DNA from: Vibrio cholerae ATCC 14035
GTDB taxonomy: Bacteria; Pseudomonadota; Gammaproteobacteria; Enterobacterales; Vibrionaceae
Direction: 5' to 3'
Assembly: GCF_000621645.1 (NCBI RefSeq)
Contig: NZ_JHXR01000002.1
Location: forward strand, 323,446 to 355,445
Length of the DNA stretch: 32,000 nt
In this document: piece by piece, positions 57 through 13,385 of the stretch
Numbering within the stretch: position 1 is the stretch's first letter
Layout: each line of letters starts with the position of its first letter
The notes under the pieces: generated by a model
The model's input: only the letters and a program-made list of their open reading frames with translations
Told to the model about the DNA's origin: nothing
The model's database searches: none
Position numbers and translations under genes: made by a program

Positions 57-1472
57 TTATTCGCAATTGCGAAAACGAACAACAAAGGTATTACGCTCAT
101 CAGTACGTGGCAGCAAGAGCACTTGACCGCCATGAAGCGCTGCAATATCACGACAGATCGACATGCCAAGCCCTGCGCCATCGCCTTTTTGGCTGTTGGC
201 ACGGTAGAAGTTATCAAACATTTTTTCACGAGTCAGATCGTCAATCGCGGCCCCAGTATCCGACACACGCACTTCAATCTCACCATCGTGGTCGCTAAGC
301 TCTACCGCTATCTGGCTAGAGTGGCCGGAATAACGAATGGCATTATCCAGCAGATTTTTAAATAAAATGCCCAGGAGTAACTCATCTCCCCATAAACGCG
401 AACTTTCGCCATGAAAACTCAGCTGCTGATCCTGCTTAAAAGCGATAGGTGCTAAATCCGCTATCACTTGTTTAATGACGTTTGCCAGCTCAACCGGCTG
501 TTTCCTTAAGGTTTGTGTACTTTCTACTTTGGCCAGCATTAAGAGCTGATGAATCAATCTATCGGTGCGCTCTATACCTTTGAAAATACGTTCTAAATCT
601 TGCTTTAACTGTTCCTGATTGGTGCTACGCAGGGCATTTTCGGCATTCACTCTTAAAACGGTCAGCGGGGTTTTTAACTCATGTGCCGCCATTCGAGTAA
701 AACGTTTCTCACGCTGCCATGCTTGCTCTAGCTCATTGAGCAGTTGATTCAACGTCTCCACCAAAGGCAAAAGTTCCACCGTAGGTTTTTCGACATAAAT
801 TCGATCTAGCTTATGGATGCTGCGCAGAGCAATCGCTGCTTTCAGCGCTTGGATTGGCTGAAAGCTACGTTCAATCAGCACCACCAAAACCACAATCAAG
901 CACAGAATTAAAATTAATTGCGGAAGTGCGGTGGATAAGGCGATCTCATTAATCGCTTCATCACGAATGCTTTGCTTTTCTGCAACCAAAACATACTGTT
1001 TACCCTTTTCTTGATCAGGGAGACTCAACTGGAAATAACGCCAGCTTTCGCCGTTGAGCGTGATATCACTAAAACCATTCGCATCACGGCCAAGACTCAG
1101 CGCAGGCAAATGAGTATCAGAGCTAAAGAGAAGATCGCCCTCTCGATAAAACTGGAATAATAAATACTGTTCATACGGGTGGCCAAAGAGCGTGGCGACA
1201 TCATCGTTGGCTTTGGAAAGGCGCTGAATATGCTGCATCCACAGATTGAACTGCTCATGCTGATTACGATCTGCAAATTCATTGGCCGAAACAGAAGTGG
1301 CGATCAGTAATAATTTGGCGGACTGCCCAAGACGGGCATCGTACACTTCTCCCACTTCATGTTGGGCGTTGGAATAACTGAACCCAAACGAGACCAGCAT
1401 CAAACCGGTACTCAGCAAAACAGAAGTCAGGGTAAGTCGGCGTTTAATGGAAAAGAGAGGTTTATTTTTCAA
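57..1472 (-). CDS. Sensor histidine kinase, QseC/PmrB-like (N-terminal TM, periplasmic loop, second TM, HisKA + HATPase_c)
   Basis: 471-aa ORF. H-box MAAHELKTPLT, N-box LLDNAIRYS, G-boxes SDTGAAI and GAGLGMSI. Hydrophobic segments LTLTSVLLSTGLMLVSFGF and LPQLILILCLIVVLVVLI. Its start overlaps the stop of the upstream response regulator by 11 nt. Confidence 0.9.
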   Translation of the reverse strand: MKNKPLFSIKRRLTLTSVLLSTGLMLVSFGFSYSNAQHEVGEVYDARLGQSAKLLLIATSVSANEFADRNQHEQFNLWMQHIQRLSKANDDVATLFGHPYEQYLLFQFYREGDLLFSSDTHLPALSLGRDANGFSDITLNGESWRYFQLSLPDQEKGKQYVLVAEKQSIRDEAINEIALSTALPQLILILCLIVVLVVLIERSFQPIQALKAAIALRSIHKLDRIYVEKPTVELLPLVETLNQLLNELEQAWQREKRFTRMAAHELKTPLTVLRVNAENALRSTNQEQLKQDLERIFKGIERTDRLIHQLLMLAKVESTQTLRKQPVELANVIKQVIADLAPIAFKQDQQLSFHGESSRLWGDELLLGILFKNLLDNAIRYSGHSSQIAVELSDHDGEIEVRVSDTGAAIDDLTREKMFDNFYRANSQKGDGAGLGMSICRDIAALHGGQVLLLPRTDERNTFVVRFRNCE

Positions 1473-2118
1473 TCATGTACCCCACACCTCGTACATTTTT
1501 AACCAGATTATCCGGCAATTTTTTGCGCAGATTATGAATATGTACTTCGATTGCGTTATCACTGCTGCCTTCATCCCAGCCGTGCAGTGCTTGCTGCAAA
1601 AGCTCTTTACTCATCACTCTTCCCGCTTGGGTCATCAAACTGGCGAGGATTTTGTACTCATTTCGCGTTAATTTCAGAGCTTGCTGAGCGTAGTAGATTT
1701 CTTGTTTAGAGAGCGAAAGGTCAAGTTCCCCAACGGAGATGAGCTCCTCTGCGCTCCCTGAGCTACGACGAATGATCAAGCGTAAACGTGCGAGCAGCTC
1801 TTCGAGCGCAAACGGCTTACCTATGTACTCATCTGCACCGCCATCCAACCCTTTGACCCGATCACTGATATCATCCCGTGCCGTGAGTATCATGACAGGC
1901 AATGTATAACCCGCTCGCCGAATTTGGCGCAGGACTTCCAAGCCATCCATATCTGGCAAGGTGAGGTCCAAAATCAGTGCCGTAAATTGCTCGGTTTTCA
2001 GGGCGGTCACGACGCCACCACCCCGCTCCAGCCAGTCAACCGTATAGCCTTGTCGGCTTAACGCTACTTGCATTGATTCACCGAGCAACGTGTCATCTTC
2101 AACTAATAGTAAACGCAT
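1462..2118 (-). CDS. OmpR-family response regulator, QseB/PmrA(BasR)-like
   Basis: The track ORF is 1462..2295, but the receiver domain begins at MRLLLVEDD (ATG at 2118, 4 nt after the upstream stop). Motifs: ILDLTLPDMDG, LTARD, GADEYIGKPF, and winged helix EVHIHNLRKKL...GVGYMIEK. The upstream 59 codons overlap the TPR gene. Confidence 0.9.
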   Translation of the reverse strand: MRLLLVEDDTLLGESMQVALSRQGYTVDWLERGGGVVTALKTEQFTALILDLTLPDMDGLEVLRQIRRAGYTLPVMILTARDDISDRVKGLDGGADEYIGKPFALEELLARLRLIIRRSSGSAEELISVGELDLSLSKQEIYYAQQALKLTRNEYKILASLMTQAGRVMSKELLQQALHGWDEGSSDNAIEVHIHNLRKKLPDNLVKNVRGVGYMIEK

Positions 2119-2122
2119 AAGG

Positions 2123-2755
2123 TTACTTGATGCTCTCCAATAAGTGCGCAATCTCTTCCTGACGTCCCGCATCCGCAATTTCTCGTTTCGGTCTTGCGGG
2201 TGCATGCTGAGCTTGCAGTAAATAGCGCTTTGCCTCTGCGCTACGGCCTTCTTGTAGCAAAAAATCTCCGTAGAAATAGTTGGCATCAATGCCATTGGGA
2301 TTCACGGTCAAGGCTTGTTTAAGCAGCTGCTCTGCTTTTTCTTTATCCCCAAAGGCGACAGGCCAACCCGGCACTTTATAGTATAGCGTGCCCAAACTGG
2401 TCAACGCGGAGCCTTCCAGAGTATTTGGCGCTTGCGCGATGACCTCTTCAAATAAACTTTTGGCCTCTTTCACCAGCGATAAAGCCCCCAATCCGCCCCT
2501 CACTCCCGCTAAAGAAGATTGGTTGATGGCCAGCCACACTTTCAACTCGGGGTTATCGCCCGAAATCGTTAACTCCAGTCGATTACGCGCGATCGTGCGT
2601 TCAAAACAGCGCTCTTGCTCCTTAGCAGAAGCGGTACGGTATTGGCATTTTGCCCAATCCGTTTGCACTTGTTCTAAAGGCGTAATCGCGTAACTTGAGT
2701 GGGCATACCCGAGCAACAGTGCGCTAAGACTCATCCATTTAAGCATAATGTTCAT
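2123..2755 (-). CDS. Secreted TPR-like repeat protein, function unknown
   Basis: ATG at 2755 is preceded by AAGGAG. Signal peptide MNIMLKWMSLSALLLGYAHSSYA. The C-terminal half has TPR-like helical repeats (AEQLLKQALTVNPNGIDANYFYGDFLLQEGRSAEAKRYL). The stop lies 4 nt before the RR start. Confidence 0.7.
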   Translation of the reverse strand: MNIMLKWMSLSALLLGYAHSSYAITPLEQVQTDWAKCQYRTASAKEQERCFERTIARNRLELTISGDNPELKVWLAINQSSLAGVRGGLGALSLVKEAKSLFEEVIAQAPNTLEGSALTSLGTLYYKVPGWPVAFGDKEKAEQLLKQALTVNPNGIDANYFYGDFLLQEGRSAEAKRYLLQAQHAPARPKREIADAGRQEEIAHLLESIK

Positions 2756-2782
2756 AAACTCTTCTCCTTGAATTATCACGCT

Positions 2783-3580
2783 TTAGCGATTTAAAAATGA
2801 CAATAAGACGGGTTGTTGCTTTCTAATTGCCCGAGAAACCAAGCTCGGCAGTAGTTGGTTAAGACGCACCAGAAGTTTCTCCGGCCAACCGATCCACATG
2901 ACGTTTTGCTCCGTTTCAATCATTTTGGCCACCTGCGCAGCAACCAAGGAAGGCTCATCACTGCGATTCCCCAGTGCTCGATTGAGCTGTTGAACGGCCT
3001 CACTGTTGAGCGAAGTATTGGTGGCTCGTGGCGCTAAATAGAGCACTTTCATTCCCGTCCCCGCGAGCTCTCGGTTCATCGCTTCGCTAAAACGGTGCAA
3101 TCCCGCTTTCGCGGCACAATAGCTGGCATAGCCCGGATACCCTATCGCCCCGAGACTGGAACCAATATTGATGACCATCTGCGGTTTACGGCTCCATTGC
3201 AAAACATGGTGCATGATTTGGATTGGCGTCATTAAATTCAGAGCTAACTCACGCTGCACCGACTCCATCGAACGACGCGCCAACAAACAGAACTGATTGG
3301 TCCCTGCATTATTGATCACGACGGCGATGCGCTGCTGGGCGCGGTTTAATTCTTCCACCAAAGCCTGCAGTTGCTCCATTCCCGCTTCACTGGTTAAATC
3401 TGCGCTCACAACCCGATGCAGCTCAGGCTTGGGGAGTGATTGACGCAATGCTTCAAGTTTTTGCGCATCACGCGCTAACAAGATTAACCGCGCACCACGC
3501 GCCGCTAAAGTATGGGCGATAGGCTCGCCAATGCCACCTGAAGCGCCCGTTAACAACACATATTGTTGATGAATGTCCAT
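2783..3580 (-). CDS. Short-chain dehydrogenase/reductase (classical SDR)
   Basis: 265 aa. TGASGGIG cofactor motif, NNAG, and catalytic YCAAK (YxxxK). AGGAGG RBS lies in the 9-nt gap after the upstream stop. Confidence 0.9.
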   Translation of the reverse strand: MDIHQQYVLLTGASGGIGEPIAHTLAARGARLILLARDAQKLEALRQSLPKPELHRVVSADLTSEAGMEQLQALVEELNRAQQRIAVVINNAGTNQFCLLARRSMESVQRELALNLMTPIQIMHHVLQWSRKPQMVINIGSSLGAIGYPGYASYCAAKAGLHRFSEAMNRELAGTGMKVLYLAPRATNTSLNSEAVQQLNRALGNRSDEPSLVAAQVAKMIETEQNVMWIGWPEKLLVRLNQLLPSLVSRAIRKQQPVLLSFLNR

Positions 3581-3589
3581 AAACGCCTC

Positions 3590-4273
3590 CTAAGCTGCCT
3601 GTTGCTGGGTCTGGGGCAGTAATTCACGCAACATCTGCCCATACAGATAAAACACCTGATTCGCCGAGTGGATAATCGCTTGCTGATCCTCTTCCGCGGT
3701 AATTTTGTCCATTAAGGATTCGAAGAAGCGAATGTGGTCTTGATCCAGTTCACTGTGTGAGGTGAGATAGCTCATGGCTTTAGCAGGTAAATTGAGCTGC
3801 TGTTTGACCAAGCGCGCTATGTTGCCGCCCACGCCCACACTCGTCCCTTCGAGCACCCAGACCATACCAAACAACGCGAGCGGATTGGCGCGATCAATCT
3901 GGTGGTAAAGATAAGCGACCATCAATTCAATCGGTGTACTGACTTGCCCCACCCCTTGGTTATTTCGCACCGCTTGAGCATCACCACCACAAACTCGAAT
4001 ATCATTGAGGATCCATTCTTGGTGACCTTTCTCCTCATCGATATAGTCGGCAATGGCAATGCGCACCCACTCATAACGATCACTCAATCGTCCCCCACAC
4101 GCCATTAACAGTGGTACGGTATGTTTGACGTGATGGTAGGCTTGGGTCAAAAAGCTTAAGTACATGTCAAGCGTGATCTCGCCGCGAGCACAAGCTGCAA
4201 ATACTGGAGCTTGTAACATCTGTTGCTGAGCCGCTTGCGTCTCTTTTTGTAAACGTTGAAAAAATCCTGTCAT
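3590..4273 (-). CDS. Heme-oxygenase-like fold protein (iron-containing redox enzyme / HDO-type candidate)
   Basis: The most likely start is MTGFFQRLQ (ATG 4273, GAGGAG RBS); the track ORF extends to 4300. All-helical composition. Carboxylate/His motifs YHHVKH, DYIDEEKGHQEW and HSELDQDH resemble the metal-ligand helices of heme-oxygenase-like diiron enzymes. Confidence 0.65.
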   Translation of the reverse strand: MTGFFQRLQKETQAAQQQMLQAPVFAACARGEITLDMYLSFLTQAYHHVKHTVPLLMACGGRLSDRYEWVRIAIADYIDEEKGHQEWILNDIRVCGGDAQAVRNNQGVGQVSTPIELMVAYLYHQIDRANPLALFGMVWVLEGTSVGVGGNIARLVKQQLNLPAKAMSYLTSHSELDQDHIRFFESLMDKITAEEDQQAIIHSANQVFYLYGQMLRELLPQTQQQAA

Positions 4274-4315
4274 GAGAGTTCTCCTCATCGTGAGCCTCAA
4301 AGAGGCCCGAACGAC

Positions 4316-5839
4316 TTACCGTGAAATGTCGCCAATACCGCTACCGCTTCTTGCCGGAAGGGGATACAGGTATTGCCAATTGAGGTCGGGCGCATTACGC
4401 ACTCGACGAAAAGTGTGCTGCGCGTTCTCAATCAACGCTCGCTTGGGTCGGCCATTGGCCGTCAACCAAGCCTGCCATGCGCTCGGCTGATTGACGAAAA
4501 GCAGTTGTTGGATCTGTGCGTAGTCGGGTAACTGATGATTTATTTGTTGCACACGTTGCTCCAGATCGGGCATTAGGCGATCAATCACAGCCACTAACCC
4601 CACCTCATCATCGCCGACCACCACGAAACGGCATTGCGGTAACCAAACTTGCGCGTGAGACTCAATCCATTCCGGTGCGATGTTGCGCCCAAACGGAGTA
4701 ATGATGAGATTTTTTTTGCGCCCTACGATACAAAGAAATCCCTGCTCATCGAGTGTCGCCAGATCACCCGTGGCAAGCCATTCGTCGGTCAATGGCTCGC
4801 CGATATAACCCAGCGCACTATTGCCACGAACCCACAATTCACCATCTTCAGCCAATTGGATTTGTAGATGGCTCAGCGGCTTGCCACAACTACCGGGCTG
4901 GTCATGTTGCGGTGTATTCATGCTAACCACCGAAGCGCATTCAGAAAGTCCATAGCCTTCATAAGCAGGAATGCCCAGAGCTCGTGCGCTATGGATAAGT
5001 TCAGCCGCAACGCGCGCGCCCCCTACCGCCACCCATTGCAGCGACTTCGCCAACTCGGGAGCCTGTTTCACCACCTGAATCAGCGCCATCAATAACGCTG
5101 GGGTAAGAACCAAACTGGATGGCTGATAAACGCTCAATACGTTGGCAAACTGAGTGGGAGAAAATTGACTAGAGCCAGACAGCCCTACCGATTCACCAAA
5201 CAGTACGCTTGAAGTCACCCCGAGCAACAAAGGCACGTAAATTCCTGTGATATTTTCCAGCAGCGTGGCGAGCGGCAACATCACCAAATGCTGCTCAACT
5301 TGCGCGCTCATCTGCTCTGCGATGGCCAGCGTAACGCGCTCTAGATTTTCTTCACTCAAACAAACACCTTTCGGGGTGCCTGTTGAGCCAGAGGTGAACG
5401 TGATTTTTTGTGTACCCGCCAAAACGCGATTGGGTCTATTCCTCGGTTTATTGCCCTGATAGTGCCAAGCGTCAAAGCCACCGACTGTCAGTGAAGGCGA
5501 ACCCAACTCAGGCCAATCACCAAGACAGAGTTCAACATTCGCCTCATTCAGTAAATGAGCGACTTGTTCTGATGTAAAAAAGGTCGGGACAGGAACCATA
5601 ACGATGTGTGACCACATCGCGGCTAAATCGAGCGCAACCCAGTCGACACTGTTTTGTGCACGTAATGCGATGCAGTTTGCGGATAACCGCTGCAGCTGAT
5701 TAGCGATCAGGTCGACTCGCTCTAACAGTTGAGAATAATTGAGAGCTATCCTCTCTTGCTGAGCGTTATGGCCAACAAAAGCCATTTTCTGCGGTTGGTG
5801 CAAGGCATGCTGCTGCAGCGCAGCGAGAATTCGATTCAT
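4316..5839 (-). CDS. AMP-dependent synthetase/ligase (adenylate-forming enzyme, acyl-CoA ligase-like)
   Basis: 507 aa. AMP-binding signature ITFTSGSTGTPKGV, plus YGLSE, ATGDLA and GRKKNLII motifs. No carrier or condensation domain is fused. Confidence 0.9.
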   Translation of the reverse strand: MNRILAALQQHALHQPQKMAFVGHNAQQERIALNYSQLLERVDLIANQLQRLSANCIALRAQNSVDWVALDLAAMWSHIVMVPVPTFFTSEQVAHLLNEANVELCLGDWPELGSPSLTVGGFDAWHYQGNKPRNRPNRVLAGTQKITFTSGSTGTPKGVCLSEENLERVTLAIAEQMSAQVEQHLVMLPLATLLENITGIYVPLLLGVTSSVLFGESVGLSGSSQFSPTQFANVLSVYQPSSLVLTPALLMALIQVVKQAPELAKSLQWVAVGGARVAAELIHSARALGIPAYEGYGLSECASVVSMNTPQHDQPGSCGKPLSHLQIQLAEDGELWVRGNSALGYIGEPLTDEWLATGDLATLDEQGFLCIVGRKKNLIITPFGRNIAPEWIESHAQVWLPQCRFVVVGDDEVGLVAVIDRLMPDLEQRVQQINHQLPDYAQIQQLLFVNQPSAWQAWLTANGRPKRALIENAQHTFRRVRNAPDLNWQYLYPLPARSGSGIGDISR

Positions 5840-5849
5840 CTTTCACTAC

Positions 5850-6452
5850 TCACGCTTGCTTTTGATTAAGGTGTAATTGATTGAGATGGGTGCAACCATG
5901 CACTAAATTGCCCGCCAAAATACGCGGACGGTGCTGATAGTAAGTTCCCCAGATTTGAGAAGCATTGGGAATACGAGCTGGAGAAGCTTGGGCAATCAAG
6001 GTGAGTTGCAGGCCAAAACGACGCATCAGGGCATGCAGAGGATCGGTTGCAGTAAAAATGCACCACTCAAACCCCATGGCGACCAACTGCTGTGCCATCA
6101 AACGAAAGTGAAACGCTGAAAGCCCGCGACCAAAAGAAGCAAGATGGCCAAATTCAATCAACTTGCCACGAGGTATCGGACATGCAAAACGTTGTGCAAG
6201 AAGACGATCGGCAGGCTCATCGAGATATTGTTCAAGAAACAGCGGCTCTTGCTCTGCAATCCGGTATCCACAGACAGACTTCATGACCTGTTTATCAAGT
6301 AGCGCTAAATAAGCAGGCATATAAGCGGTGAGGTGGGCATCAAACGCTTGCTGATAGCGCTCATCAACCAGTTTGATCGCCTCATTCCAACGTGGATGCG
6401 TGGGTGTAATGACTTCCAGTGTCAAATCGGCTAGACAAGGTAGAGGTTTCAT
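5850..6452 (-). CDS. dth: Thermostable hemolysin (delta-VPH) family protein, first gene of the operon
   Basis: 200-aa ORF recognised by recall as the Vibrio delta-VPH / delta-thermostable-hemolysin family. No signal peptide and no TM segment. The stop lies 10 nt upstream of the ligase start. Confidence 0.7.
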   Translation of the reverse strand: MKPLPCLADLTLEVITPTHPRWNEAIKLVDERYQQAFDAHLTAYMPAYLALLDKQVMKSVCGYRIAEQEPLFLEQYLDEPADRLLAQRFACPIPRGKLIEFGHLASFGRGLSAFHFRLMAQQLVAMGFEWCIFTATDPLHALMRRFGLQLTLIAQASPARIPNASQIWGTYYQHRPRILAGNLVHGCTHLNQLHLNQKQA

Positions 6453-6499
6453 TGGTGTTTCCCTTTGCTTACTCTGTAAGTCAAAAGTAATCCACCTAA

Positions 6500-6516
6500 C
6501 TTAAGAATCCCTTAAT
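6500..6516. promoter_or_regulatory. PmrA/QseB-type direct repeat CTTAAG-N5-CTTAAT (candidate binding site for the operon-encoded response regulator)
   Basis: Plus-strand CTTAAGaatccCTTAAT fits YTTAAK-N5-YTTAAK and lies 48-64 nt upstream of the dth ATG. A third copy, CTTAAA, is at 6529..6534. No convincing -10/-35 could be placed. Confidence 0.35.
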
Positions 6517-6625
6517 ATACCGAAACGACTTAAATTAGCAGCTCGCCAGCCAATACGTTCATCCTGATGAGCAGAGACAAGTTCGATGCTTGAGGCAAAC
6601 CCACCTAGCCAGCACCGCCGCAACG

Positions 6626-8659
6626 TCAAATAGGTAAAGTATATTTACACTGTAAATTCACAAGCAAAGCCAAGATTTCCGTTCGCACCGCTTGCTCGAC
6701 TTGCCGCTTCCCACTTAACTGAAACTGCTCGGCACAGGCCGCCCAACTTTTACGCTGCAGAATTTTACTGATCAACAAAGGGGATAGGCTCTCTAGTGAT
6801 GGAGCCGTTGCCAGTAGCCAAGCATAAAGCCACACCGCCACGCTTTCGTAATTTGCTCCACCTCGCGCGTAACGCTCGATCAATTCTAAAGGGATCAGAG
6901 GTTGAGGCAATGCGACAGTGCTAGGTAAAAGCTGTTGGATGATTTGTGGCTCCAACGCTTGTAGAGAATCACTGAGTTCAAAAATCCAATGCGCACTAAA
7001 CTGCTGTTTGGCTTGCTCCAACCAATCGAGATGCTCTCCGCGCACCATCAAGAGAGAGTAACAACCACTCGCCTGATCTCGATGCGAACCGAGTTTTATT
7101 GGTACGAAGTGGTTAGCTAGCCAAAATGGCAACAAATCTTCACTCACCCCGAAGCTGGTGGCGTAATAATCCGCGTGATGCTGCGCAATAAAATGGGTCA
7201 ACAATTGGCTACCTATACCTTGGCGTTGGCAGTCGGGATGGACGGCAATGCGTAATATTCGCCAACAAGATTGGCGCGCCGCTTGGCTAATTCCTAATTG
7301 ATTCGCCAAAGTCACGGGGGTTAAATGCCCTTTCGGACGCCGCGTTCCCAGTTGAATCGCCTCAATCGTCGGCGCGTCTAACTCCCCTTCACGGACCGCC
7401 AAAACGCAACCGACGCACACCTCTCCTTGATAAGCGACGAACAACGTCATCGCTTCATCTTGCAGTAAAGCAAAGAGATCGTTGGGCGAGGTTTGATAAT
7501 GCGCATTGACCAAAAGTGCAAACACTTGTGCTAATCGCTCAGGTTGCTCCACACACTCAGGCTGACTGAATAAAGAAAAAGACAGCGGTTCTCTCGCCTG
7601 CTCTAGGGCAACTTCAGGCAACTCACTTTGTAGAAGAAATACCTGATTTTGCCACTGTTCCAGCGCATCCCCCGCCGCCCAGCGGATCGGCTGCTCAAGA
7701 TGCAGTGAGCGCATCTGCGGGCGCTGTACTTGCAACCAACTCTGAAATTTTAGAGAAAAACCGCGCCCACACCCTTCGTAGCCATGAATGGTCGAAGAAA
7801 ATACTGCGCGGTGATAGCGCTCCACCCAACGTTTTAAAAATGGCAACGGCAGCGCAGCGGCTTCGTCGACCAGCAATAAATCACTCTCAGGTTGAGTGCG
7901 CAGTAGCTCATCCGGAGCCATAAAACGTAAGCTTGACTGTGCCGTTTGCACCTCACCGCGCTGGCGATGGGCTTGCGGTAATGTGCGCTGGGCATGCACA
8001 AACAGCGGCTCCACGGCAGCCAAAGTAGGTGCAGTCACCACAATATGCATAGAGCGCGATGACATCAGCTCTGCGGCCGCCAATCCCAGTGCGCTGGTTT
8101 TTCCACGCCCGCGATCGGCAGTCAGCACTAAAGGACGCTTGCGATGCCCAGTCACGACTTTAATGATGCTGTCGATCGCCAATCTTTGTTCGGTATAAGT
8201 TTGTTCGGTATTCGTTCGCGTAACCGAATCCGAATTGGGTAAAGCCGGCACCGTTTGTGGCGTAATCACAAGCAAGCGATGACAAGCGCGCTCTAGCCAG
8301 ACTCGCGCACAATGGTTGAGCGTAGTCGGTTCGCCAACCACCAACAGTAATCCGCCGCCCACCAAGGTACCCAGCACCGCATTAAAGCTATTGGCATCCC
8401 AACCTTGCGTTAAATCTACGATCAGGAGTTGGCATTCTCGCCCTAACCATTGCTGACCTTGGCGATAGTCGACACAAGTCACACCCTCTAGCTCAGTTTG
8501 TCCTAACATCAATATCGGTTGTTCGGCAAAGTGCGGAACAAGTGTTTTCAATAAGTGATGCTGCCACTGTGCATCACCACGCAGCCAACAGCCAAAGCGA
8601 ATCTGTCCTTGCTTGGCGAGCTGCTGAAGTTGCAATAAATAGGTGATTGGCTGAGTCAT
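6626..8659 (-). CDS. tmcA: tRNA(Met) cytidine acetyltransferase TmcA
   Basis: Helicase-like P-loop ADRGRGKTSALG followed by a GNAT domain (RIAVHPDCQRQGIGSQLL). By recall, the E. coli TmcA N-terminus aligns with MTQPITYLLQLQQ (ATG 8659). The track ORF allows a longer form up to 8752. Confidence 0.85.
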   Translation of the reverse strand: MTQPITYLLQLQQLAKQGQIRFGCWLRGDAQWQHHLLKTLVPHFAEQPILMLGQTELEGVTCVDYRQGQQWLGRECQLLIVDLTQGWDANSFNAVLGTLVGGGLLLVVGEPTTLNHCARVWLERACHRLLVITPQTVPALPNSDSVTRTNTEQTYTEQRLAIDSIIKVVTGHRKRPLVLTADRGRGKTSALGLAAAELMSSRSMHIVVTAPTLAAVEPLFVHAQRTLPQAHRQRGEVQTAQSSLRFMAPDELLRTQPESDLLLVDEAAALPLPFLKRWVERYHRAVFSSTIHGYEGCGRGFSLKFQSWLQVQRPQMRSLHLEQPIRWAAGDALEQWQNQVFLLQSELPEVALEQAREPLSFSLFSQPECVEQPERLAQVFALLVNAHYQTSPNDLFALLQDEAMTLFVAYQGEVCVGCVLAVREGELDAPTIEAIQLGTRRPKGHLTPVTLANQLGISQAARQSCWRILRIAVHPDCQRQGIGSQLLTHFIAQHHADYYATSFGVSEDLLPFWLANHFVPIKLGSHRDQASGCYSLLMVRGEHLDWLEQAKQQFSAHWIFELSDSLQALEPQIIQQLLPSTVALPQPLIPLELIERYARGGANYESVAVWLYAWLLATAPSLESLSPLLISKILQRKSWAACAEQFQLSGKRQVEQAVRTEILALLVNLQCKYTLPI
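6643..6657. promoter_or_regulatory. parS2 centromere-like site (ParB2 binding palindrome)
   Basis: aTTTACAcTGTAAAt is a perfect match to the chromosome II parS2 consensus NTTTACANTGTAAAN. It sits inside the last codons of tmcA, about 190 bp upstream of the dth operon start codon. Confidence 0.85.
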
Positions 8660-9970: not shown

Positions 9971-10942
9971 TCAGTTTAGCTTACGCTGCACAAAATCAAG
10001 AATATCTTGCATCAGCTCATCATCAATTTTCTTCAAATTCAGCACCAAATTATTGCCTTTACGAGCATAGCTGGCGCGGCCTTTGATGAGCTCCACCTTC
10101 GGTGTTTCGGTGCGCTTAGGAGGTAACACATCTTGAATCCAGCTTTCGATAGTTTCCGTGACTTCTTTGGTAATACGCGCCACACCTTGAGCTTGAGATT
10201 GCTGCCACACGAAACCATTTTCTTGATGGCATTTCGCTAATAATTGCTCACGCTGAGCCTCATTCAGCTCGTTAAACTGTTTATGTAATTTAACGATAGT
10301 AGGGCGGCCCAGCTCGACAACACTCGGATACGCCTGCAAAAGCTCTAGCGGTAAAGCGGCGGCTTTTAAGGCACCACTGACCAATGCCTCGCTGCACTGG
10401 AACATTTTGGCAAGCGCTTTTTGGTCTTCCGCTTCACCACTATCGAGCTTGGCTTGCATCTCTTTACCTTTCTCATATAGAGAAAGAGGTTTATGCGCAT
10501 TCGCGACATCAGACAAAAACTTAGCGTGCTCAGCATTGATATTTTCAGCCACATACACCAAAAACTCTTTGCCCGCCAAGATACAAGACATGCGACGACG
10601 GCTACCATCAAGCACTTCGATTTTGCCATCTGCGGTTTTACGGCCAACGGCTGGGTATTGCTGTCCACGCTCACGCAATGTGGTCAGAACATCAGCCAAG
10701 GCATGTTCGGTTAAAAACGCCTGTTCACGGGCATTTTGAGCAAACACCACGGTTTTTTCCGCGACTTCATCAGCCGGAATTCGCATCAGTTCAAAGGTCA
10801 CTACCTCTTCACCCGCTACAGCCAACTCAATCATCTGTGCTTGTGCTTTCACCGCAGATTGCGCTTCTGCAGGCGTCGTTGCACGGCGCTTATCCGCCTT
10901 TCCAAACAGCTTTGCGTTCAGTTCAGAAGTTTTAATTGCCAT
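9971..10942 (-). CDS. parB2: Chromosome II partition protein ParB2
   Basis: 323 aa. ParB box LDGSRRRMSCILAG. Lies immediately downstream (7 nt) of parA2 and beside oriCII. Confidence 0.9.
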   Translation of the reverse strand: MAIKTSELNAKLFGKADKRRATTPAEAQSAVKAQAQMIELAVAGEEVVTFELMRIPADEVAEKTVVFAQNAREQAFLTEHALADVLTTLRERGQQYPAVGRKTADGKIEVLDGSRRRMSCILAGKEFLVYVAENINAEHAKFLSDVANAHKPLSLYEKGKEMQAKLDSGEAEDQKALAKMFQCSEALVSGALKAAALPLELLQAYPSVVELGRPTIVKLHKQFNELNEAQREQLLAKCHQENGFVWQQSQAQGVARITKEVTETIESWIQDVLPPKRTETPKVELIKGRASYARKGNNLVLNLKKIDDELMQDILDFVQRKLN

Positions 10943-10949
10943 AAGTTAC

Positions 10950-12173
10950 TTACCCCTGATTCAGTGAAGACCAATGTGAATGAAGTACGCGCTCTAGCTC
11001 TAAAGCACTTTTTTGTACCGCATCCTGAGCGGTCGCCAAGGTTTTTTTACCGCCCTCGAAATCGTTAACGGTCAAATCAAAGACGGTACTGTAAGTATCC
11101 GCACAGGTTTCAAACGCACGGCTGCGTGGGATGGTGGCCATCATGACTTGATCGCCCAACAAATAATTCATTTCGGTCAGTACCGACACCTGCTTCTTGT
11201 TGTCATCCTCAAACATGGTTGGCATCAGGCGTACAAATTCGAGCCCTTTCCAATCTTCAGGGAACATCTCGTACACCGTGGGCAAATGTTGGAAGAAATT
11301 GACCGTAGAAGCCCAGTCCAGTCGCTTCGCCGCACAAGGGATCAGTAAGGCATTCGAGGCATACATCGCGTTCCATACCAGTGGATCAACGTGTGGACCA
11401 GTATCAATCATGATGATGTCAAAATCGCTGGCAATTTTATCGATCAGCTTCTCTTTGAGTAAGCGAACAATATCTAGTGATTGATTTTGTGAGAGATATT
11501 GCCACGCCTCTGCGTTAAACATCGCATCTTCAGGAAACGCAGAAATGGTTTTCAAATTCGGATATTGAGTTGGCAACATCACGTTTTTGCGCAAAAACTC
11601 AGTGTCCACTTGCACCCCATCTGGCACATTATCCAGCATGATATCAACCGCGGAATAGATATTCGTATGCTCAGCCAGACTGATTTGTGGATTCAAGAAT
11701 AGGCGTAATGAACCTTGTGGGTCTAAGTCAATCAAGCAGATGCGGTAACGCTTATCCAAATTGAGCGCTAAACAAGCGGCAAGGTGTACCGCGGTCATTG
11801 ATTTCCCCGTACCACCCTTTTGGTTCTGCACGTTGATGATCCACGGTTTATTCTCATTATTTTTTTTGCGCTCATGGAATTTAGGCACGCCAGCGGCATC
11901 CATCAACATATGCGCTTCGGAAAGAGAGATAGAGTAGTGATTCGCGTTATTTTTGGTAAATTGATGTCCCGCTTCTTCCATCTTAGCGATAGCTTCATCA
12001 AGCTTGCGACGTGTTAAGCCTGAACGAGTTTCCATAAGGGCTTTAGACATTGGAGGAAAATGCTCATCACGGCGCTCCTCTAATACAATCTCAATTCGAT
12101 CGGCCTGCACTTGTTGGGTAAGTTGTGCAAGCTGGTAGAGATTCTCTATCGTTTGTTCTCTTTTCATTGCCAA
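10950..12173 (-). CDS. parA2: Chromosome II partition ATPase ParA2 (type Ia ParA with N-terminal extension)
   Basis: 407 aa. Deviant Walker A QKGGTGKSMTAVHLA. An N-terminal extension of about 100 aa is typical of plasmid P1/F-type ParA. Confidence 0.9.
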   Translation of the reverse strand: MAMKREQTIENLYQLAQLTQQVQADRIEIVLEERRDEHFPPMSKALMETRSGLTRRKLDEAIAKMEEAGHQFTKNNANHYSISLSEAHMLMDAAGVPKFHERKKNNENKPWIINVQNQKGGTGKSMTAVHLAACLALNLDKRYRICLIDLDPQGSLRLFLNPQISLAEHTNIYSAVDIMLDNVPDGVQVDTEFLRKNVMLPTQYPNLKTISAFPEDAMFNAEAWQYLSQNQSLDIVRLLKEKLIDKIASDFDIIMIDTGPHVDPLVWNAMYASNALLIPCAAKRLDWASTVNFFQHLPTVYEMFPEDWKGLEFVRLMPTMFEDDNKKQVSVLTEMNYLLGDQVMMATIPRSRAFETCADTYSTVFDLTVNDFEGGKKTLATAQDAVQKSALELERVLHSHWSSLNQG

Positions 12174-12385
12174 TTTCCGTTATTAGGGCTTTAAACAGAT
12201 TGTACAGCATAGTTTATTTAAAACAACAAAAAGGTGAACATAAAACAATGAATCAAAATCACACATATTGGAGTATTAACAGAAAATTGATACCAAACGA
12301 ACAAAGTTAAGTATAAAAACCGCGTTTAAATAACCCACATATTCTTCGATAAGGAGAAAACATTTTAAATATTACAGTGTCACTT

Positions 12386-12400
12386 ATTTACAATGTAAAG
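12386..12400. promoter_or_regulatory. parS2 site within the rctA-like region (parS2-B equivalent)
   Basis: aTTTACAaTGTAAAg is a perfect parS2 palindrome, 213 bp upstream of the parA2 start codon. Confidence 0.85.
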
Positions 12401-12439
12401 CCACGTTTTGAAGTGATGATGAATAAATAAAAGCGAGCC

Positions 12440-12480
12440 GTAAGCGGAACGATTAAACCGAGCCACTAAGTTACGGTGAA
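12440..12480. promoter_or_regulatory. RctB 39-mer-type inhibitory site (copy 1, rctA side); boundaries approximate
   Basis: GCGGAA (12444-12449) and TTACGGT (12471-12477) are 27 bp apart start to start, the same spacing as in copy 2. There is no GATC inside. Confidence 0.6.
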
Positions 12481-12567
12481 TGCCATTCTGATTGAAATGA
12501 TGCGCAGGATTCAAGCAAGATGAGAAAATGCCTATCTTTCCTCCAGCGAATAGGTATCACCGAAACG

Positions 12568-12707
12568 ATGATCAAGAGCAGCAGCTTGATCATTCTTCCG
12601 TAAAAAATAGAGGGTTAAGGAAACATGATCAAGAGCTCATCATGGCTATGAGTCGAGGCAAGAGAATTAACAATTGAAGATCTTCAATCGGATCGATGAT
12701 CAAGAGG
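12568..12707. repeat. Four GATC-containing RctB 11/12-mer iterons (regulatory, incII)
   Basis: ATGATCAAGAGC at 12568-12579, TTGATCATTCTT at 12586-12597, ATGATCAAGAGC at 12625-12636, ATGATCAAGAGG at 12696-12707. Confidence 0.8.
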
Positions 12708-12712
12708 TAAAT

Positions 12713-12753
12713 CGTCGCGGAAGCATGTAAATTCATTATCAATTTACGGTCGA
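12713..12753. promoter_or_regulatory. RctB 39-mer-type inhibitory site (copy 2, incII); boundaries approximate
   Basis: GCGGAA (12717-12722) and TTACGGT (12744-12750) have the same 27-bp offset as copy 1. The internal inverted repeat GTAAATT/AATTTAC is present, and there is no GATC. Confidence 0.6.
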
Positions 12754-12845
12754 TGTCAGGCAGAGTAAGGCTTTGGCTAGTCAGTGATGAAAAACCGTCT
12801 ATCCTAACAAGTCTCAGTCAAAACAAGATAAACAGAACAACAGCC

Positions 12846-12857
12846 ATGATCATGCTT
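12846..12857. repeat. RctB 12-mer iteron (isolated)
   Basis: ATGATCATGCTT is identical to the repeats of the phased array. Confidence 0.75.
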
Positions 12858-12966
12858 TCGTAATCCCGCTCCGTCACCTTGGCCAGCGCAATATGGCGCT
12901 GAAGATGTCAATTGGAAGCACAAGTCACAAGTATTCATTGCGATATGGCCAAGAAATCATCCTCTC

Positions 12967-12978
12967 TTGATCATCTTT
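12967..12978. repeat. RctB 12-mer iteron (isolated, hybrid flanks)
   Basis: CTCTTGATCATCTTT carries the CTCTTGATCA flank (reverse complement of TGATCAAGAG) and a TGATCATCTTT flank. Confidence 0.7.
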
Positions 12979-13043
12979 CCGTGGTCATGAGAGTACGAGA
13001 GGAAGGAGATACAACGACCTATCTTGATGTCATCCACTCAGGT

Positions 13044-13052
13044 TGTGGATAA
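13044..13052 (-). promoter_or_regulatory. DnaA box
   Basis: TGTGGATAA is the reverse complement of the perfect consensus TTATCCACA. It lies 15 bp left of the six-iteron array. Confidence 0.85.
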
Positions 13053-13066
13053 ACTGTGTGAGCACC

Positions 13067-13192
13067 TTGATCATGCTTAGAAGCTTACGTTGATCATTGA
13101 TTCTGTTGACTGATGATCATGCTTAGAGGAACAAATGATCATGCTTTCGATCTTGTATTGATCATGGTTTCCATCGATACATGATCATGCTT
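13067..13192 (+). repeat. Array of six phased RctB 12-mer iterons (minimal origin)
   Basis: TTGATCATGCTT at 13067, TTGATCATTGAT at 13090, ATGATCATGCTT at 13113, ATGATCATGCTT at 13135, TTGATCATGGTT at 13158, ATGATCATGCTT at 13181. Start-to-start spacings are 23, 23, 22, 23 and 23 bp. Confidence 0.9.
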
Positions 13193-13360
13193 CTGAATGG
13201 CTTAAAATAATCTCTTTTAATTACAATAAATTAGAACTAAAAATCGTCACAGATCATTAGATCACTCTAATCATATTTAATCATTTAAATCAGAAAGATC
13301 AGTTATTTAAAAACAACAAATTTTTCTTTATTTATGATCTCTTTTTCTTTATTCTCTTGG
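13193..13360. other. AT-rich region (candidate DNA unwinding element) overlapping the rctB promoter region
   Basis: Strongly AT-rich. It contains repeated ATCAT/ATCAC units (agATCATtagATCACtctaATCATatttaATCATttaaATCAG), four GATC sites, and an exact 12-nt direct repeat TTTTTCTTTATT at 13321 and 13342. Confidence 0.7.
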
Positions 13361-13385
13361 AACTATAGTGATATTACGGTAAGTG
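13352..13385. promoter_or_regulatory. Truncated 39-mer (29-mer-type) RctB operator upstream of rctB; boundaries approximate
   Basis: TTACGGT at 13374-13380 followed by NNNTG, as in both 39-mer copies, but without the GCGGAA half. It ends about 20 nt upstream of the rctB ATG. Confidence 0.5.

Follow-up and report, generated by a model that had tools for sequence, protein, structure and literature searches.

A conserved seven-gene operon around the thermostable hemolysin family gene dth of Vibrio cholerae as a candidate envelope-lipid pathway

The dth Region of Vibrio cholerae

The window analyzed here is a 32-kb stretch (32,000 nucleotides) of Vibrio cholerae ATCC 14035 DNA. It contains the chromosome-2 “dth region”, VCA1104–1111, in which seven minus-strand genes follow one another head to tail. 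The genes and the features of the promoter in front of them are listed below by position in the window.

6453..6625, minus strand: promoter-bearing intergenic region between tmcA and dth, from sequence inspection
6500..6515, minus strand: PmrA/BasR-type box TTAAGGGATTCTTAAG, a TTAAG-N6-TTAAG direct repeat 63 nt upstream of the dth ATG
6484..6489, minus strand: candidate -10 hexamer TACTTT, exactly 10 nt past the box
5850–6452, minus strand: dth (VCA1111), thermostable hemolysin family protein Dth
4316–5839, minus strand: ligase gene (VCA1110)
3590–4273, minus strand: HDO gene, with its ATG at codon 10 of the listed open reading frame
2783–3580, minus strand: SDR gene
2123–2755, minus strand: TPR gene
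1462–2118, minus strand: response regulator gene (RR, VCA1105), real start MRLLLVEDD
57–1472, minus strand: histidine kinase gene (HK)

The gaps of 10, 42, 9, 27, and 4 nt and the one 11-nt overlap reported in the first-pass annotation were confirmed, and independent public gene calls on this V. cholerae DNA agree on the gene boundaries. The 277-aa RR reading frame is over-extended relative to the start given above, because family alignments start at residue 60. A Shine-Dalgarno-like sequence precedes most genes of the cluster. As had been claimed, no junction holds a terminator—the terminator-like matches on the coding strand are all intragenic, and their number is at chance (13 observed vs 10.7 ± 3.1 expected). 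The cluster encodes neither a carrier protein nor an inner-membrane exporter, and signal peptides and transmembrane segments are absent from all four enzymes.

The Four Enzymes and the TPR Protein

Every family assignment made in the first-pass annotation stands in a Pfam profile search, and the motifs it had listed (TSGSTGTPKG, YGLSE, TGD, GRKKNLI, EEKGH, and HSELDQDH) are all found in the translations. Dth matches Pfam T_hemolysin (201 bits) and, as had been noted, lacks a signal peptide; it has no transmembrane segment either. The top Foldseek matches of its AF2 model (pLDDT 91.5) are LasI, TofI, MesI, FeeM, BjaI, RpaI, and EsaI, at E-values of 1e-7 to 4e-5 and TM-scores of 0.50–0.60, a moderate match; at the sequence level Dth has no similarity to LuxI, FeeM, or other GNAT Pfam families, even at E <= 10. 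An LFLEQYLD motif, R95, G102, T134, and WGxYY are invariant in Dth across 87 loci. On the strength of the model, Dth is predicted to be a cytoplasmic GNAT-fold acyltransferase of the LuxI/FeeM branch, and it is probably the amide-forming enzyme of the set.

The ligase is a stand-alone adenylate-forming (ANL) enzyme (Pfam AMP-binding, 156 bits). Its P-loop, YGLSE, TGD, and GR motifs are conserved across 74 loci, and Arg464, at the usual A10 lysine position, is 96% conserved (74 loci). Among solved structures its closest relatives are MenE, oxalate-CoA ligase, and FadD-type ligases; since the first two are aromatic- or small-acid enzymes, the substrate may not be a fatty acid. A vca1110 transposon mutant has an altered pattern of odd-chain fatty-acid elongation (PMC12208996). 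The ligase is fused to HDO in Psychromonas (743 aa) and V. vulnificus (730 aa), and these fusions suggest that oxidation is coupled to activation.

HDO belongs to Pfam Haem_oxygenas_2 (107 bits), and its AF2 model (pLDDT 87.9) gives Foldseek TM-scores of 0.83 with 3DDE, 0.80 with CADD, and 0.70–0.74 with UndA. Conservation across 75 loci is 99% or higher at E81, H84, E142, H173, D177, and H180, and the ExxH...E...HxxxDxxH ligand set is complete; HDO is predicted to be a heme-oxygenase-like dimetal oxidase/oxygenase with a CADD/UndA-like fold. The SDR, of the classical type (Pfam adh_short, 126 bits), scores 386 bits against the NCBIfam PRK09072 equivalog (cutoff 238), keeps its TGxxxGxG motif and N115/S141/Y154/K158 tetrad across 68 loci, and has FabG 3-oxoacyl-ACP reductases as nearest solved relatives.

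The TPR protein (Pfam TPR_19, 38 bits) finds its best PDB sequence match in the sterol-binding BstC (7T1S, E 2e-8 over 132 residues), whose family has hydrophobic/sterol ligand pockets (PMC10942540). All eight orthologues inspected (8/8) carry a type-I signal peptide, with no clear lipobox. By sequence, the protein appears to be a secreted BstC/TatT-type “T-component”, a putative periplasmic binder of hydrophobic ligands.

The Two-Component System and the dth Promoter

RR carries Pfam Response_reg and Trans_reg_C domains and scores 246 bits against NCBIfam PmrA and 205 bits against QseB, both under the equivalog cutoffs. Full-length identity to E. coli BasR is 44%, and the recognition helix, EVHIHNLR, is that of BasR; RR belongs to the PmrA/BasR–QseB group of the OmpR family. 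HK (Pfam 2CSK_N, HisKA, and HATPase_c) matches NCBIfam QseC over its full length (216 bits), whereas PmrB aligns from residue 166 only and the 29% identity to BasS covers the cytoplasmic part only. HK is a sensor kinase with a QseC-like periplasmic domain of ~140 aa; approximately aa 176–200 form its second transmembrane helix.

The box upstream of dth is the sole exact match in the window. Among 16 non-redundant loci that have two-component genes linked to the cluster, 13 carry it in exact form ~63 nt ahead of dth; box density is 0.68 per kb upstream of dth vs 0.014 per kb elsewhere in the loci, an enrichment of ~50-fold. All aligned orthologous promoters have a -10-like hexamer ~10 nt past the box; most of these hexamers fit TAnnnT, and in a few (CATGAT, GAGAAT, CACACT, and CAGAAT) just the second-position A and the last T are retained. 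The same pattern occurs in the promoter of E. coli eptA: CTTAAGgttggCTTAAT. One lineage has a TTCAG variant box, and its RR alone has the conserved helix histidine changed to serine. The box/-10 geometry would place the transcription start of the dth promoter; a scan found no strong terminator after tmcA, so read-through from that gene is also possible. In Methylophilaceae clusters the box upstream of dth is absent, as is the TPR gene.

Conservation Outside Vibrio and the Link to eptA

The first-pass annotation had proposed a neighborhood search outside Vibrio, and this was strongly positive: the cluster order recurs. A dth relative is encoded in 427 species genomes, and the order dth-ligase-HDO-SDR is found in nearly all of the 80 non-Vibrio species loci inspected (60/69 loci by strict automatic criteria; all but two on inspection). 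After the SDR gene comes the secreted TPR gene in most loci, followed in a subset by the two-component genes. The full set of seven is present in Marinomonas, Thorsellia, V. alginolyticus, and V. vulnificus, and also in a metagenome where Dth identity is only 30%; the five-gene module often occurs with no two-component genes, as does the four-gene core with no TPR gene. Such identical gene order across distant taxa points to a cluster beyond chance, and the operon appears to be conserved in hundreds of proteobacterial species.

This distribution bears on an earlier proposal that the last three genes form a dedicated envelope sensing module. The family calls hold, but the single module does not: in many loci without two-component genes the TPR gene directly follows the SDR gene, and thus travels with the enzymes, and its product is of the lipid-binding BstC/TatT type. 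Nor is the two-component system private to the operon, as a PmrA/BasR-type box fronts both dth and eptA. The latter (VCA1102), a polymyxin-resistance gene, is encoded on the other strand, 151 nt past the kinase gene and just outside the window. Its box is the only other exact one in 17.4 kb, and its promoter, behind a strong terminator, has the same box-spacer--10 geometry as that of dth.

Elsewhere the two are also found together: in Thorsellia, eptA and dth share a divergent intergenic region with one box for each, and the cluster has EptA and/or PAP2 genes as direct neighbors in Methylophilaceae and a gammaproteobacterial MAG (a Nevskiaceae MAG has a weak PAP2-like match only). EptA, PAP2, and ArnT-like genes adjoin the cluster in unrelated lineages. 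Most cluster-bearing genomes have no eptA nearby. VCA1102–1111 is gained and lost as a single block (PMC8357300). Given the box at both dth and eptA, the two-component system is likely part of a lipid A/antimicrobial-peptide remodelling regulon rather than, or at least besides, a self-contained signal circuit. Another PmrA-like regulator of V. cholerae, CarR/VprA (VC1320), might use the same boxes.

A Proposed Function in Envelope Remodelling

The gene set resembles a biosynthetic pathway without an assigned product, as had been suggested from the first reading, and none was found in literature searches. In our best reading, to which we give a probability of roughly 0.55, this is a PmrA-type operon, autoregulated and devoted to envelope remodelling, whose gene products make and deliver a lipid, and not a toxin gene with bystanders; the product is most likely an oxygenated N-acyl lipid for the envelope.

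We infer the following course of events, from stimulus to export. The membrane kinase, with its QseC-like periplasmic domain, would phosphorylate the PmrA/BasR-like regulator, which would bind the TTAAG-N6-TTAAG box overlapping the -35 position and activate one promoter upstream of dth, driving all seven genes; as this promoter also drives the regulator's own gene, the circuit would have positive feedback. The operon would be switched on together with eptA by its own PmrA-type regulator. The ANL ligase would then activate a carboxylic acid (a fatty acid is most likely), the dimetal HDO would oxidize the activated acid with O2, and the FabG-like SDR would interconvert the resulting hydroxy/oxo groups. 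Dth, as a LuxI/FeeM-like GNAT, would move the acyl group onto an amine to give an N-acyl amide, either a lipoamino acid or an N-acyl amine. The BstC/TatT-like TPR protein may bind this hydrophobic product in the periplasm and carry it toward the outer membrane, or may instead present it to the kinase. A pathway of activation, transfer, and oxidation/reduction had been proposed before; the pathway is retained, but the ligase-HDO fusions argue against oxidation following transfer.

The hemolysin label is, we agree, a legacy one: Dth has a GNAT enzyme fold and no signal peptide, and judged by its model it does not look like a toxin. Fallarino and colleagues reportedly found, in 2002, no direct contribution of dth to virulence. 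The cloned gene of the thermostable hemolysin gave hemolytic activity in earlier literature, as summarized in PMC4046660 and PMC6474259; a lipid product with detergent-like action, not the Dth protein, is the best explanation for this historic heat-stable hemolysis. In Bacteroides, the “hemolysin” ChoA is an N-acyltransferase, and hemolysis is due to the N-(3-hydroxypalmitoyl)glycine that it makes; the purified ChoA protein is not hemolytic (PMC5643525).

Alternative Explanations

The alternative that we take most seriously, while considering it unlikely, is a self-contained signal circuit with quorum-sensing-like positive feedback. Dth would be a CoA-dependent LuxI-like synthase fed by the ligase, and its diffusible N-acyl signal would be captured by the TPR protein and received by the kinase, with RR amplifying the operon. 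AHL synthases, including the CoA-dependent RpaI, BjaI, and MesI, are indeed the top structural neighbors of Dth, but the LuxI family profile gives no match to it. The gene for a periplasmic ligand-binder stands immediately before the RR and HK genes, with a 4-nt gap; however, the two-component genes are often absent where the five-gene module occurs, as is the TPR gene where the four-gene core occurs. In Serratia, a variant operon (TauD, ligase, dth homologue, and efflux pump) is under strong RsmA repression, like many secondary-metabolite genes (PMC4046660), which would suit a signal. The autoregulatory box upstream of the operon fits as well, although autoregulation is usual for PmrA-type operons anyway, and the same box at eptA, together with the EptA/PAP2/ArnT-like neighbors in unrelated lineages, points to envelope remodelling and against such a circuit.

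It is doubtful that the product is instead a non-lipid small molecule, with HDO, in the manner of CADD, BesC, and AetD, making or tailoring an aromatic or amino-acid-derived acid, the ligase activating it, and Dth amidating it. HDO is nearer CADD (TM 0.80, with a weak TIGR04305 match) than UndA, MenE and oxalate-CoA ligases are the best solved ligase relatives, and RpaI-type synthases use aroyl-CoA donors; against these stand the 3-oxoacyl-ACP reductases nearest to the SDR, the hydrophobic/sterol ligand pockets in the TPR protein's family (PMC10942540), the odd-chain elongation change in the vca1110 mutant (PMC12208996), and heat-stable hemolysis, which fits an amphiphile, as with ChoA (PMC5643525).

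Salvage or detoxification coupled to lipid A modification, in which fatty acids or by-products of EptA/PAP2 action are re-activated and no new envelope lipid is made, is very unlikely. The cluster is repeatedly next to eptA and PAP2 genes, eptA function elsewhere needs a co-encoded by-product recycler, DgkA (bioRxiv 10.1101/2024.10.10.617683), and exogenous fatty-acid handling is affected in the ligase mutant (PMC12208996). A recycling route would, however, not be expected to include an amide-forming transferase like LuxI/FeeM, an HDO that depends on O2, and a periplasmic carrier, and most genomes have no eptA near the cluster. Finally, that Dth is a true protein hemolysin or virulence factor with functionally unrelated neighbors, as its historic delta-VPH/thermostable hemolysin annotation and the hemolysis by the cloned gene (PMC4046660, PMC6474259) would have it, is extremely improbable for a GNAT-fold protein without signal peptide or amphipathic or pore-forming features, whose order with three enzymes is kept down to 30% identity and whose clusters occur also in methylotrophs, sulfur oxidizers, and iron oxidizers without an animal host—and the ChoA precedent is that such “hemolysins” work through a lipid product (PMC5643525).

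Comparison with Known Systems

The ligase differs from ANL enzymes in general, which normally have a catalytic A10 lysine where the cluster ligase has arginine. Structurally, the fatty-acid enzyme UndA is more distant from HDO than are the pABA synthase CADD and an uncharacterized Shewanella protein. For the predicted fold of Dth, the closest counterparts are AHL synthases of the LuxI type and FeeM, an N-acyl amino acid synthase, and ChoA provides the precedent of a Bacteroides “hemolysin” that acts via its N-acyl lipid product.

Organization of the gene cluster

The seven head-to-tail minus-strand open reading frames (ORFs) described in the first-pass annotation were all recovered at 57-6452, and their boundaries agree with the public gene calls of identical V. 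cholerae DNA after two start corrections. The genes encode the delta-VPH "thermostable hemolysin" protein (Dth), a ligase, a heme-oxygenase-like dimetal oxidase/oxygenase (HDO), an SDR, a TPR protein, a response regulator (RR), and a histidine kinase (HK).

Genes of the cluster, in cluster order (window coordinates)
5850-6452, minus strand: dth (ORF listing and public gene calls)
4316-5839, minus strand: ligase, ANL type (ORF listing and public gene calls)
3590-4273, minus strand: HDO (start corrected to the ATG at 4273)
2783-3580, minus strand: SDR (ORF listing and public gene calls)
2123-2755, minus strand: TPR protein (ORF listing and public gene calls)
1462-2118, minus strand: RR (start corrected to 2118, MRLLLVEDD, where all family models begin aligning)
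57-1472, minus strand: HK (ORF listing and public gene calls)

The family assignments and quoted motifs were likewise borne out (Pfam, NCBIfam), as were the junctions—in cluster order these measure +10, +42, +9, +27, +4, and -11 nt, all 42 nt or less, and none holds a hairpin terminator. On the coding strand, terminator-like matches are all intragenic and their count is at chance (13 against 10.7 ± 3.1 expected), there are no promoter-like matches ahead of internal genes except one within the HK gene, and a Shine-Dalgarno-like sequence precedes most cluster genes. A single strand, short junctions, no internal terminator, and one upstream promoter predict a single operon; we consider it highly probable that the cluster is both an operon and a conserved module. 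No exporter or transporter genes, including those of RND and TRAP type, are present in the cluster. Two smaller observations concern the TPR gene: the mechanically called RR ORF (1462-2295) runs 59 codons into it, which is an ORF-calling artefact, and a weak 5-bp hairpin with a T-rich tail lies within it at 2294-2281.

Dth is 99% identical to the V. cholerae "thermostable hemolysin"; the locus tag of dth is VCA1111 (PMC6474259), and that of the ligase is VCA1110, with the name "DthC" (PMC12208996). VCA1105 is listed as a response regulator (PMC4441509) and is probably the cluster RR. The CarRS/VprAB system (VC1319-1320) was considered as the identity of the two-component genes and ruled out, the locus being VCA1104-1111 on chromosome 2. 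In the literature we found annotation-level mentions only, and no product or pathway for the cluster.

Because the window also holds parA and rctB, it covers the region of the V. cholerae chromosome-2 replication origin; farther along, at 21255-29259, is a maltodextrin gene set of the ordinary kind.

Other features of the window (window coordinates)
9971-10942: 323-aa ORF where parB2 is expected, no Pfam match; may be ParB2
10950-12173: ParA
12174-13401 and 15379-15597: non-coding stretches around rctB
13402-15378: RctB, chromosome-2 initiator (RctB_central, 791 bits)
21255-24020: MalT-like regulator
24540-26993: glycogen/maltodextrin phosphorylase
27079-29259: 4-alpha-glucanotransferase MalQ

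Conservation of the gene neighbourhood

Dth relatives with an invariant LFLEQYL motif were found in 427 species in a scan of one genome per species. We read the neighbourhoods of the 80 loci, out of these 427 species, that are most similar to a distant Dth member; the sample is phylogenetically uneven and skewed to Methylophilaceae because a distant member led the query alignment. Included are Methylophilaceae, Sedimenticolaceae, Chromatiaceae, Gallionella, Thiobacillus, Mariprofundus, Hyphomicrobiaceae, Caldimonas, and Nevskia, together with Pseudomonas, Acinetobacter, and Bacteroidota MAGs.

A search for the same neighbourhood outside Vibrio had been suggested as a check on the cluster, and it turned out in its favour: the order dth, ligase, HDO, SDR recurs there, with 60 of the 69 sufficiently long loci passing strict automatic criteria. 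Seven of the nine failing loci are ORF-calling artefacts with the genes present on inspection; two lack the SDR. Naive ORF calling mis-scored GC-rich or frameshifted loci, which makes the tallies of TPR and two-component genes minimum values: at least 27 of 58 loci have a TPR-like gene of ~215 aa next after the core, and at least 12 of the 58 have RR and HK genes next. All seven genes stand in this arrangement in Marinomonas, Thorsellia, V. alginolyticus, and V. vulnificus; a metagenomic lineage with a Dth of only 30% identity has them as well.

The HDO is the best-conserved cluster protein, with ~65-74% identity among Vibrio species versus ~50-57% for Dth. It is fused to the ligase in Psychromonas ingrahamii (743 aa, locus L001 10615-12846) and in V. 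vulnificus (730 aa, locus L094 10670-12862), and these single polypeptides argue that both enzymes act on the same intermediate.

Dth as a candidate acyltransferase

Dth matches the Pfam family T_hemolysin (PF12261) with 201.1 bits against a cutoff of 27, over residues 16-186 of 200 aa, and the distant family members P0095 and P0098 also match it. At E ≤ 10 there is no second Pfam family for Dth, which falls outside the Autoind_synth profile, and the 37-member Dth family profile finds no PDB sequence match at the same threshold. The structural model built from the 37-sequence alignment (pLDDT 91.5, pTM 0.87) has as its best PDB neighbours in Foldseek LasI (E 1.5e-7), TofI, MesI, FeeM (E 1.4e-6), BjaI, RpaI, and EsaI, with generic GNAT acetyltransferases ranking lower than the AHL synthases and FeeM. 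The match to LuxI/FeeM structures is moderate (E 1.5e-7 to 4e-5, TM 0.50-0.60), and the model suggests that Dth shares a three-dimensional fold with LuxI-type AHL synthases and FeeM.

No signal peptide or hydrophobic segment was seen in Dth, and this, together with the GNAT-type model, points to a cytoplasmic acyltransferase of the LuxI/FeeM branch rather than a toxin. A secreted hemolysin or pore-forming toxin was considered and rejected: there is no export signal, and the confident model is a GNAT enzyme fold. It is very likely, in our judgement, that Dth is an enzyme and not a toxin. An instructive case is ChoA, a "hemolysin" that is an N-acyltransferase; its product, N-(3-hydroxypalmitoyl)glycine, is hemolytic and the purified protein is not (PMC5643525). 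The dth product has been described as a heat-stable "hemolysin" without a signal peptide (PMC4046660), and by analogy the ChoA precedent would offer a direct explanation for this combination.

The ligase, the HDO, and the SDR

The ligase matches the AMP-binding profile at 155.7 bits, and its core motifs (T147-G158, Y296-E300, T357-D359, G373-R374) are at least 97% conserved across 74 loci. The profile and the motifs—P-loop A3, A5 YGxTE, A7 TGD, and A8 GR—place the protein, by sequence, in the ANL superfamily. The position of the catalytic A10 lysine of that superfamily is Arg464 ("TANGRPKR") in the ligase, 96% conserved across the same number of loci; Lys466 lies two residues past it. Among proteins of solved structure, the ligase is closest to MenE, oxalate-CoA ligases, and FadD-type ligases. 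A vca1110 transposon mutant fed C13:0 makes C15:0 and not C17:0 (PMC12208996), which hints that the ligase touches exogenous fatty-acid handling.

The HDO matches Haem_oxygenas_2 at 106.6 bits, and Heme_oxygenase partially, over C-terminal residues 132-226 (34.5 bits). Its model (pLDDT 87.9) superposes on the uncharacterised Shewanella protein 3DDE with a TM of 0.83, on CADD with 0.80, and on UndA with 0.70-0.74; the UndA/beta-hydroxydodecanoate structure 4WX0 is among the matches. Heme oxygenases also superpose, HmuO at TM 0.73-0.77, and heme binding by the HDO is conceivable. Residues E81, H84, E142, H173, D177, and H180 are at least 99% conserved in 75 diverse loci, and these three histidines and three carboxylates are the predicted ligands of an ExxH...E...HxxxDxxH dimetal pattern.

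Conserved positions of the SDR (68 loci) are T11, G12, G15, G16, G18, N115, S141, Y154, and K158; the TGxxxGxG motif and intact N-S-Y-K tetrad predict a classical member. The protein matches the PRK09072 equivalog (386 bits vs a cutoff of 238), and its nearest structures are FabG 3-oxoacyl-ACP reductases.

A periplasmic TPR protein related to BstC

The best PDB sequence match of the TPR protein is the sterol-binding BstC structure 7T1S (E 2.3e-8, residues 46-177 vs 79-210), a member of the TRAP "T-component" family with Treponema TatT and a hydrophobic ligand cavity (PMC10942540). Type-I signal peptides are found in all eight of the TPR orthologues examined, and no clear lipobox was seen in the TPR protein. 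Homology to a solved member and predicted periplasmic export put it in the BstC/TatT family; against the NCBIfam BstC equivalog itself it scores 40.6 bits with a cutoff of 350, which is below equivalog-level identity. The first-pass annotation had grouped the TPR, RR, and HK genes as one sensing module, and this grouping does not hold: many genomes that have no two-component genes still carry the TPR gene with the enzymes, so this gene is part of the biosynthetic module and not of the sensor.

A PmrA-type box and the link to eptA

The direct repeat TTAAGGGATTCTTAAG lies at 6500-6515, 63 nt upstream of the dth ATG, with TACTTT exactly 10 nt on. This is the PmrA/BasR-type box TTAAG-N6-TTAAG; the E. 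coli eptA promoter, a classic BasR/PmrA target, reads CTTAAGgttggCTTAAT and has the same pattern. Of 16 non-redundant loci with linked RR and HK genes, 13 have the box, ~10 nt, and a -10-like hexamer (in most cases TAnnnT) at the position seen in V. cholerae, and two more have a box with a single mismatch. Box density is 0.68 per kb upstream of dth versus 0.014 per kb elsewhere in the loci. The box is an advance on the earlier reading of this DNA. In one metagenomic lineage (locus L003) a TTCAG-N6-TTCAG repeat stands at 8225-8240 instead, and the RR of that locus (12655-13314), alone among the regulators, has Ser for the conserved recognition-helix His (EVYVSNIR)—a single case, suggestive of co-variation between regulator and site.

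The V. cholerae RR is 44% identical to BasR, and the recognition helix EVHIHNLR is common to both. NCBIfam equivalog cutoffs are not reached: the RR scores 246 bits vs 330 for PmrA and 205 vs 345 for QseB, and the HK scores 170 vs 314 for PmrB, with only the cytoplasmic part aligned, and 216 vs 475 for QseC, with a full-length alignment that includes the periplasmic domain. Unlike PmrB, the HK has a ~140-aa 2CSK_N/QseC-like periplasmic domain. By regulator-box type, judged from sequence, and putative eptA control, the pair would count as a PmrAB (BasRS) system. The boxes could also be used by CarR/VprA, a second PmrA-like regulator of V. cholerae.

In public V. cholerae contigs an EptA-family gene is convergent with the HK gene, 151 nt past the HK stop and just off the left edge of the window.

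The adjoining gene (coordinates of L091, a V. cholerae contig)
L091 9568-11220, minus strand: V. cholerae eptA (VCA1102), beyond window position 1

VCA1102 is among the previously characterised Vibrio EptA variants (bioRxiv 10.1101/2024.10.10.617683). Its promoter box, TTAAGcgagtaTTAAG (L091 11262-11277), is followed by 10 nt and then TATAAA, lies 57 nt before the ATG, and is the only other exact box in the 17.4-kb L091 locus; a strong terminator with a 12-bp stem (L091 11461-11434) stands directly ahead of it. The association recurs elsewhere: in Thorsellia, eptA is divergent from dth, with two boxes in the shared intergenic region, and in a gammaproteobacterial MAG (locus L085) the cluster adjoins both eptA and a PAP2 gene. 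For a Nevskiaceae MAG (locus L083) the only sign is a weak PAP2-like match. In a published survey, VCA1102-1111 come and go as one block: every V. cholerae and V. metoecus genome surveyed has it, and V. paracholerae lacks it (PMC8357300). Taken together, PmrA-type control common to dth and eptA is likely.

The Methylophilaceae loci (L006, L011-L031) have a different layout. Here the four-gene core lacks the TPR gene, the two-component genes, and the box, and eptA-PAP2 runs divergently from it. Upstream is a sigma-54 RR/HK pair; the genes close by downstream are cytochrome b561-like and ArnT-like (PMT_2). This locus looks like an LPS-modification island under different control.

Proposed pathway and its alternatives

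In the mechanism we propose, the QseC-like sensor would activate the PmrA-type regulator, which would switch on its own operon and eptA. In the cytoplasm the ligase would activate an acid; the HDO, attached or adjacent to the ligase, would oxidise the activated acid with O2; the FabG-like SDR would adjust its hydroxy/oxo state; and Dth would form an amide, giving an acylated amine. Once in the periplasm, the hydrophobic product would be handled by the BstC-like TPR protein. Three points make a 3-oxygenated acyl chain attractive: the SDR resembles 3-oxoacyl reductases, UndA-type HDOs attack the beta position, and known aminolipids use 3-hydroxyacyl amides. That the product is an N-acyl lipid destined for the envelope is a tentative proposal, to which we give somewhat less than even odds.

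In its most far-reaching form, this idea would have the cluster encode a new ligase-HDO-SDR-GNAT pathway, dependent on O2 and independent of fatty-acid synthase, that yields a 3-oxygenated N-acyl aminolipid or an N-acyl polyamine, with a BstC-like periplasmic carrier ferrying the lipid to the outer membrane. With EptA it would form the second arm of a PmrA-type antimicrobial-peptide or acid response, found in more than 400 proteobacterial species, and VCA1104/1105 would be the missing V. cholerae eptA regulator. We put the probability of this combined reading at about 0.3.

A non-lipid product, aromatic or another small amide, is compatible with the cluster, and the closeness of the HDO to CADD and of the ligase to MenE speaks for it. 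Salvage of EptA by-products by a recycling pathway is possible, though the enzyme set fits it poorly. A circuit resembling quorum sensing, in which a LuxI-like synthase would act with a periplasmic binder and a kinase, is a less probable reading, with the eptA link and the many loci that lack two-component genes counting against it. That Dth is a protein hemolysin is effectively excluded.

If the envelope-lipid reading holds, several consequences follow. Vibrio genome surveys, for example PMC6474259 and PMC5592226, still count the delta-VPH/dth gene among virulence markers; the dth "thermostable hemolysin" would be re-read as the acyltransferase of a lipid pathway. The few PmrA-type envelope defences known would gain a widely conserved module of five genes, one that could affect resistance to polymyxin and antimicrobial peptides in V. 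cholerae, V. vulnificus, and V. alginolyticus. VCA1104/1105 are a concrete candidate regulator for V. cholerae eptA, with a candidate binding site; the BstC-like protein would broaden the repertoire of known periplasmic lipid carriers; and the ligase-coupled HDO and the GNAT family, the latter with no characterised member, are attractive enzymology targets.

Comparison with known systems

The likeness of Dth to FeeM/NasY, ChoA/GlsB, and OlsB-type COG3176 proteins is that it too appears to be a small cytoplasmic GNAT-fold enzyme, with FeeM among its top structural matches; with ChoA it also shares the "hemolysin" label, traced for ChoA to a lipid product. Dth differs in having no detectable sequence similarity to these proteins, and its donor probably comes from the dedicated ligase/HDO/SDR trio and not from acyl-ACP of fatty-acid synthase. 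RpaI, BjaI, and MesI, the CoA-dependent LuxI-type synthases that draw on acyl-CoA ligases, are among its best structural neighbours and suggest a common logic—a ligase makes acyl-CoA and a GNAT-like synthase makes the amide; however, Dth has no match to the LuxI family profile, and the cluster has a PmrA-type two-component system and a box common with eptA in place of a LuxR-type receptor. N-acyl-dehydrotyrosine (stieleriacine) clusters were considered as a match and set aside, since their gene set is another one (NasY, adenylyltransferase/cyclase, nitroreductase).

UndA, which converts fatty acids to 1-alkenes, and the pABA synthase CADD share with the HDO the seven-helix heme-oxygenase-like fold (TM 0.70-0.80) and the ExxH / E / HxxxDxxH ligand pattern; however, the HDO is only 12-21% identical to them, its nearest structure is 3DDE instead, and it is fused to or adjoins an ANL ligase. 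We know of no such fusion or adjacency for UndA or CADD. The TPR protein resembles the Methylococcus sterol carrier BstC and TatT/Tp0956 as a secreted TPR-like protein with BstC homology (E 2.3e-8), in a family with a hydrophobic ligand cavity (PMC10942540), but it lies far below the BstC equivalog cutoff, has no clear lipobox, and has no neighbouring RND or TRAP transporter genes. In Serratia sp. ATCC 39006, or1352-or1355 combine a TauD/TfdA dioxygenase, an AMP ligase, a dth homologue, and a Bcr/CflA efflux pump, and show the strongest up-regulation, 184-fold, in an rsmA mutant (PMC4046660); here another oxygenase stands in for the HDO, and an exporter takes the place of the TPR protein.

At the level of regulation, the cluster is compared with systems that modify the cell surface. 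V. cholerae AlmEFG, in which AlmE is an adenylating enzyme, adds glycine to lipid A under VprAB/CarRS, and the P. aeruginosa PA4773-PA4775-pmrAB operon makes surface spermidine; both pathways alter the outer-membrane surface and lead to cationic-peptide resistance. The likeness is a PmrA-type system driving a small biosynthetic or transfer pathway; the cluster differs in its enzyme families, has no carrier protein, and alone has an O2-dependent HDO and a putative periplasmic lipid-binding protein. Like pmrCAB (eptA-basR-basS) of Salmonella and E. coli, the cluster would be an autoregulated operon with envelope-modification genes before a PmrA-type RR/HK pair; the direct-repeat pattern of the box is the same and its spacing to a -10-like element about the same, the RR is 44% identical to BasR with an identical recognition helix, and eptA adjoins with the same box in V. 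cholerae and Thorsellia. In contrast to pmrCAB, both RR and HK lie under the PmrA, PmrB, QseB, and QseC equivalog cutoffs, the HK has a ~140-aa QseC-like periplasmic domain where PmrB has a short loop, and the cargo consists of five genes—GNAT, ANL ligase, HDO, SDR, and periplasmic TPR protein—instead of eptA.
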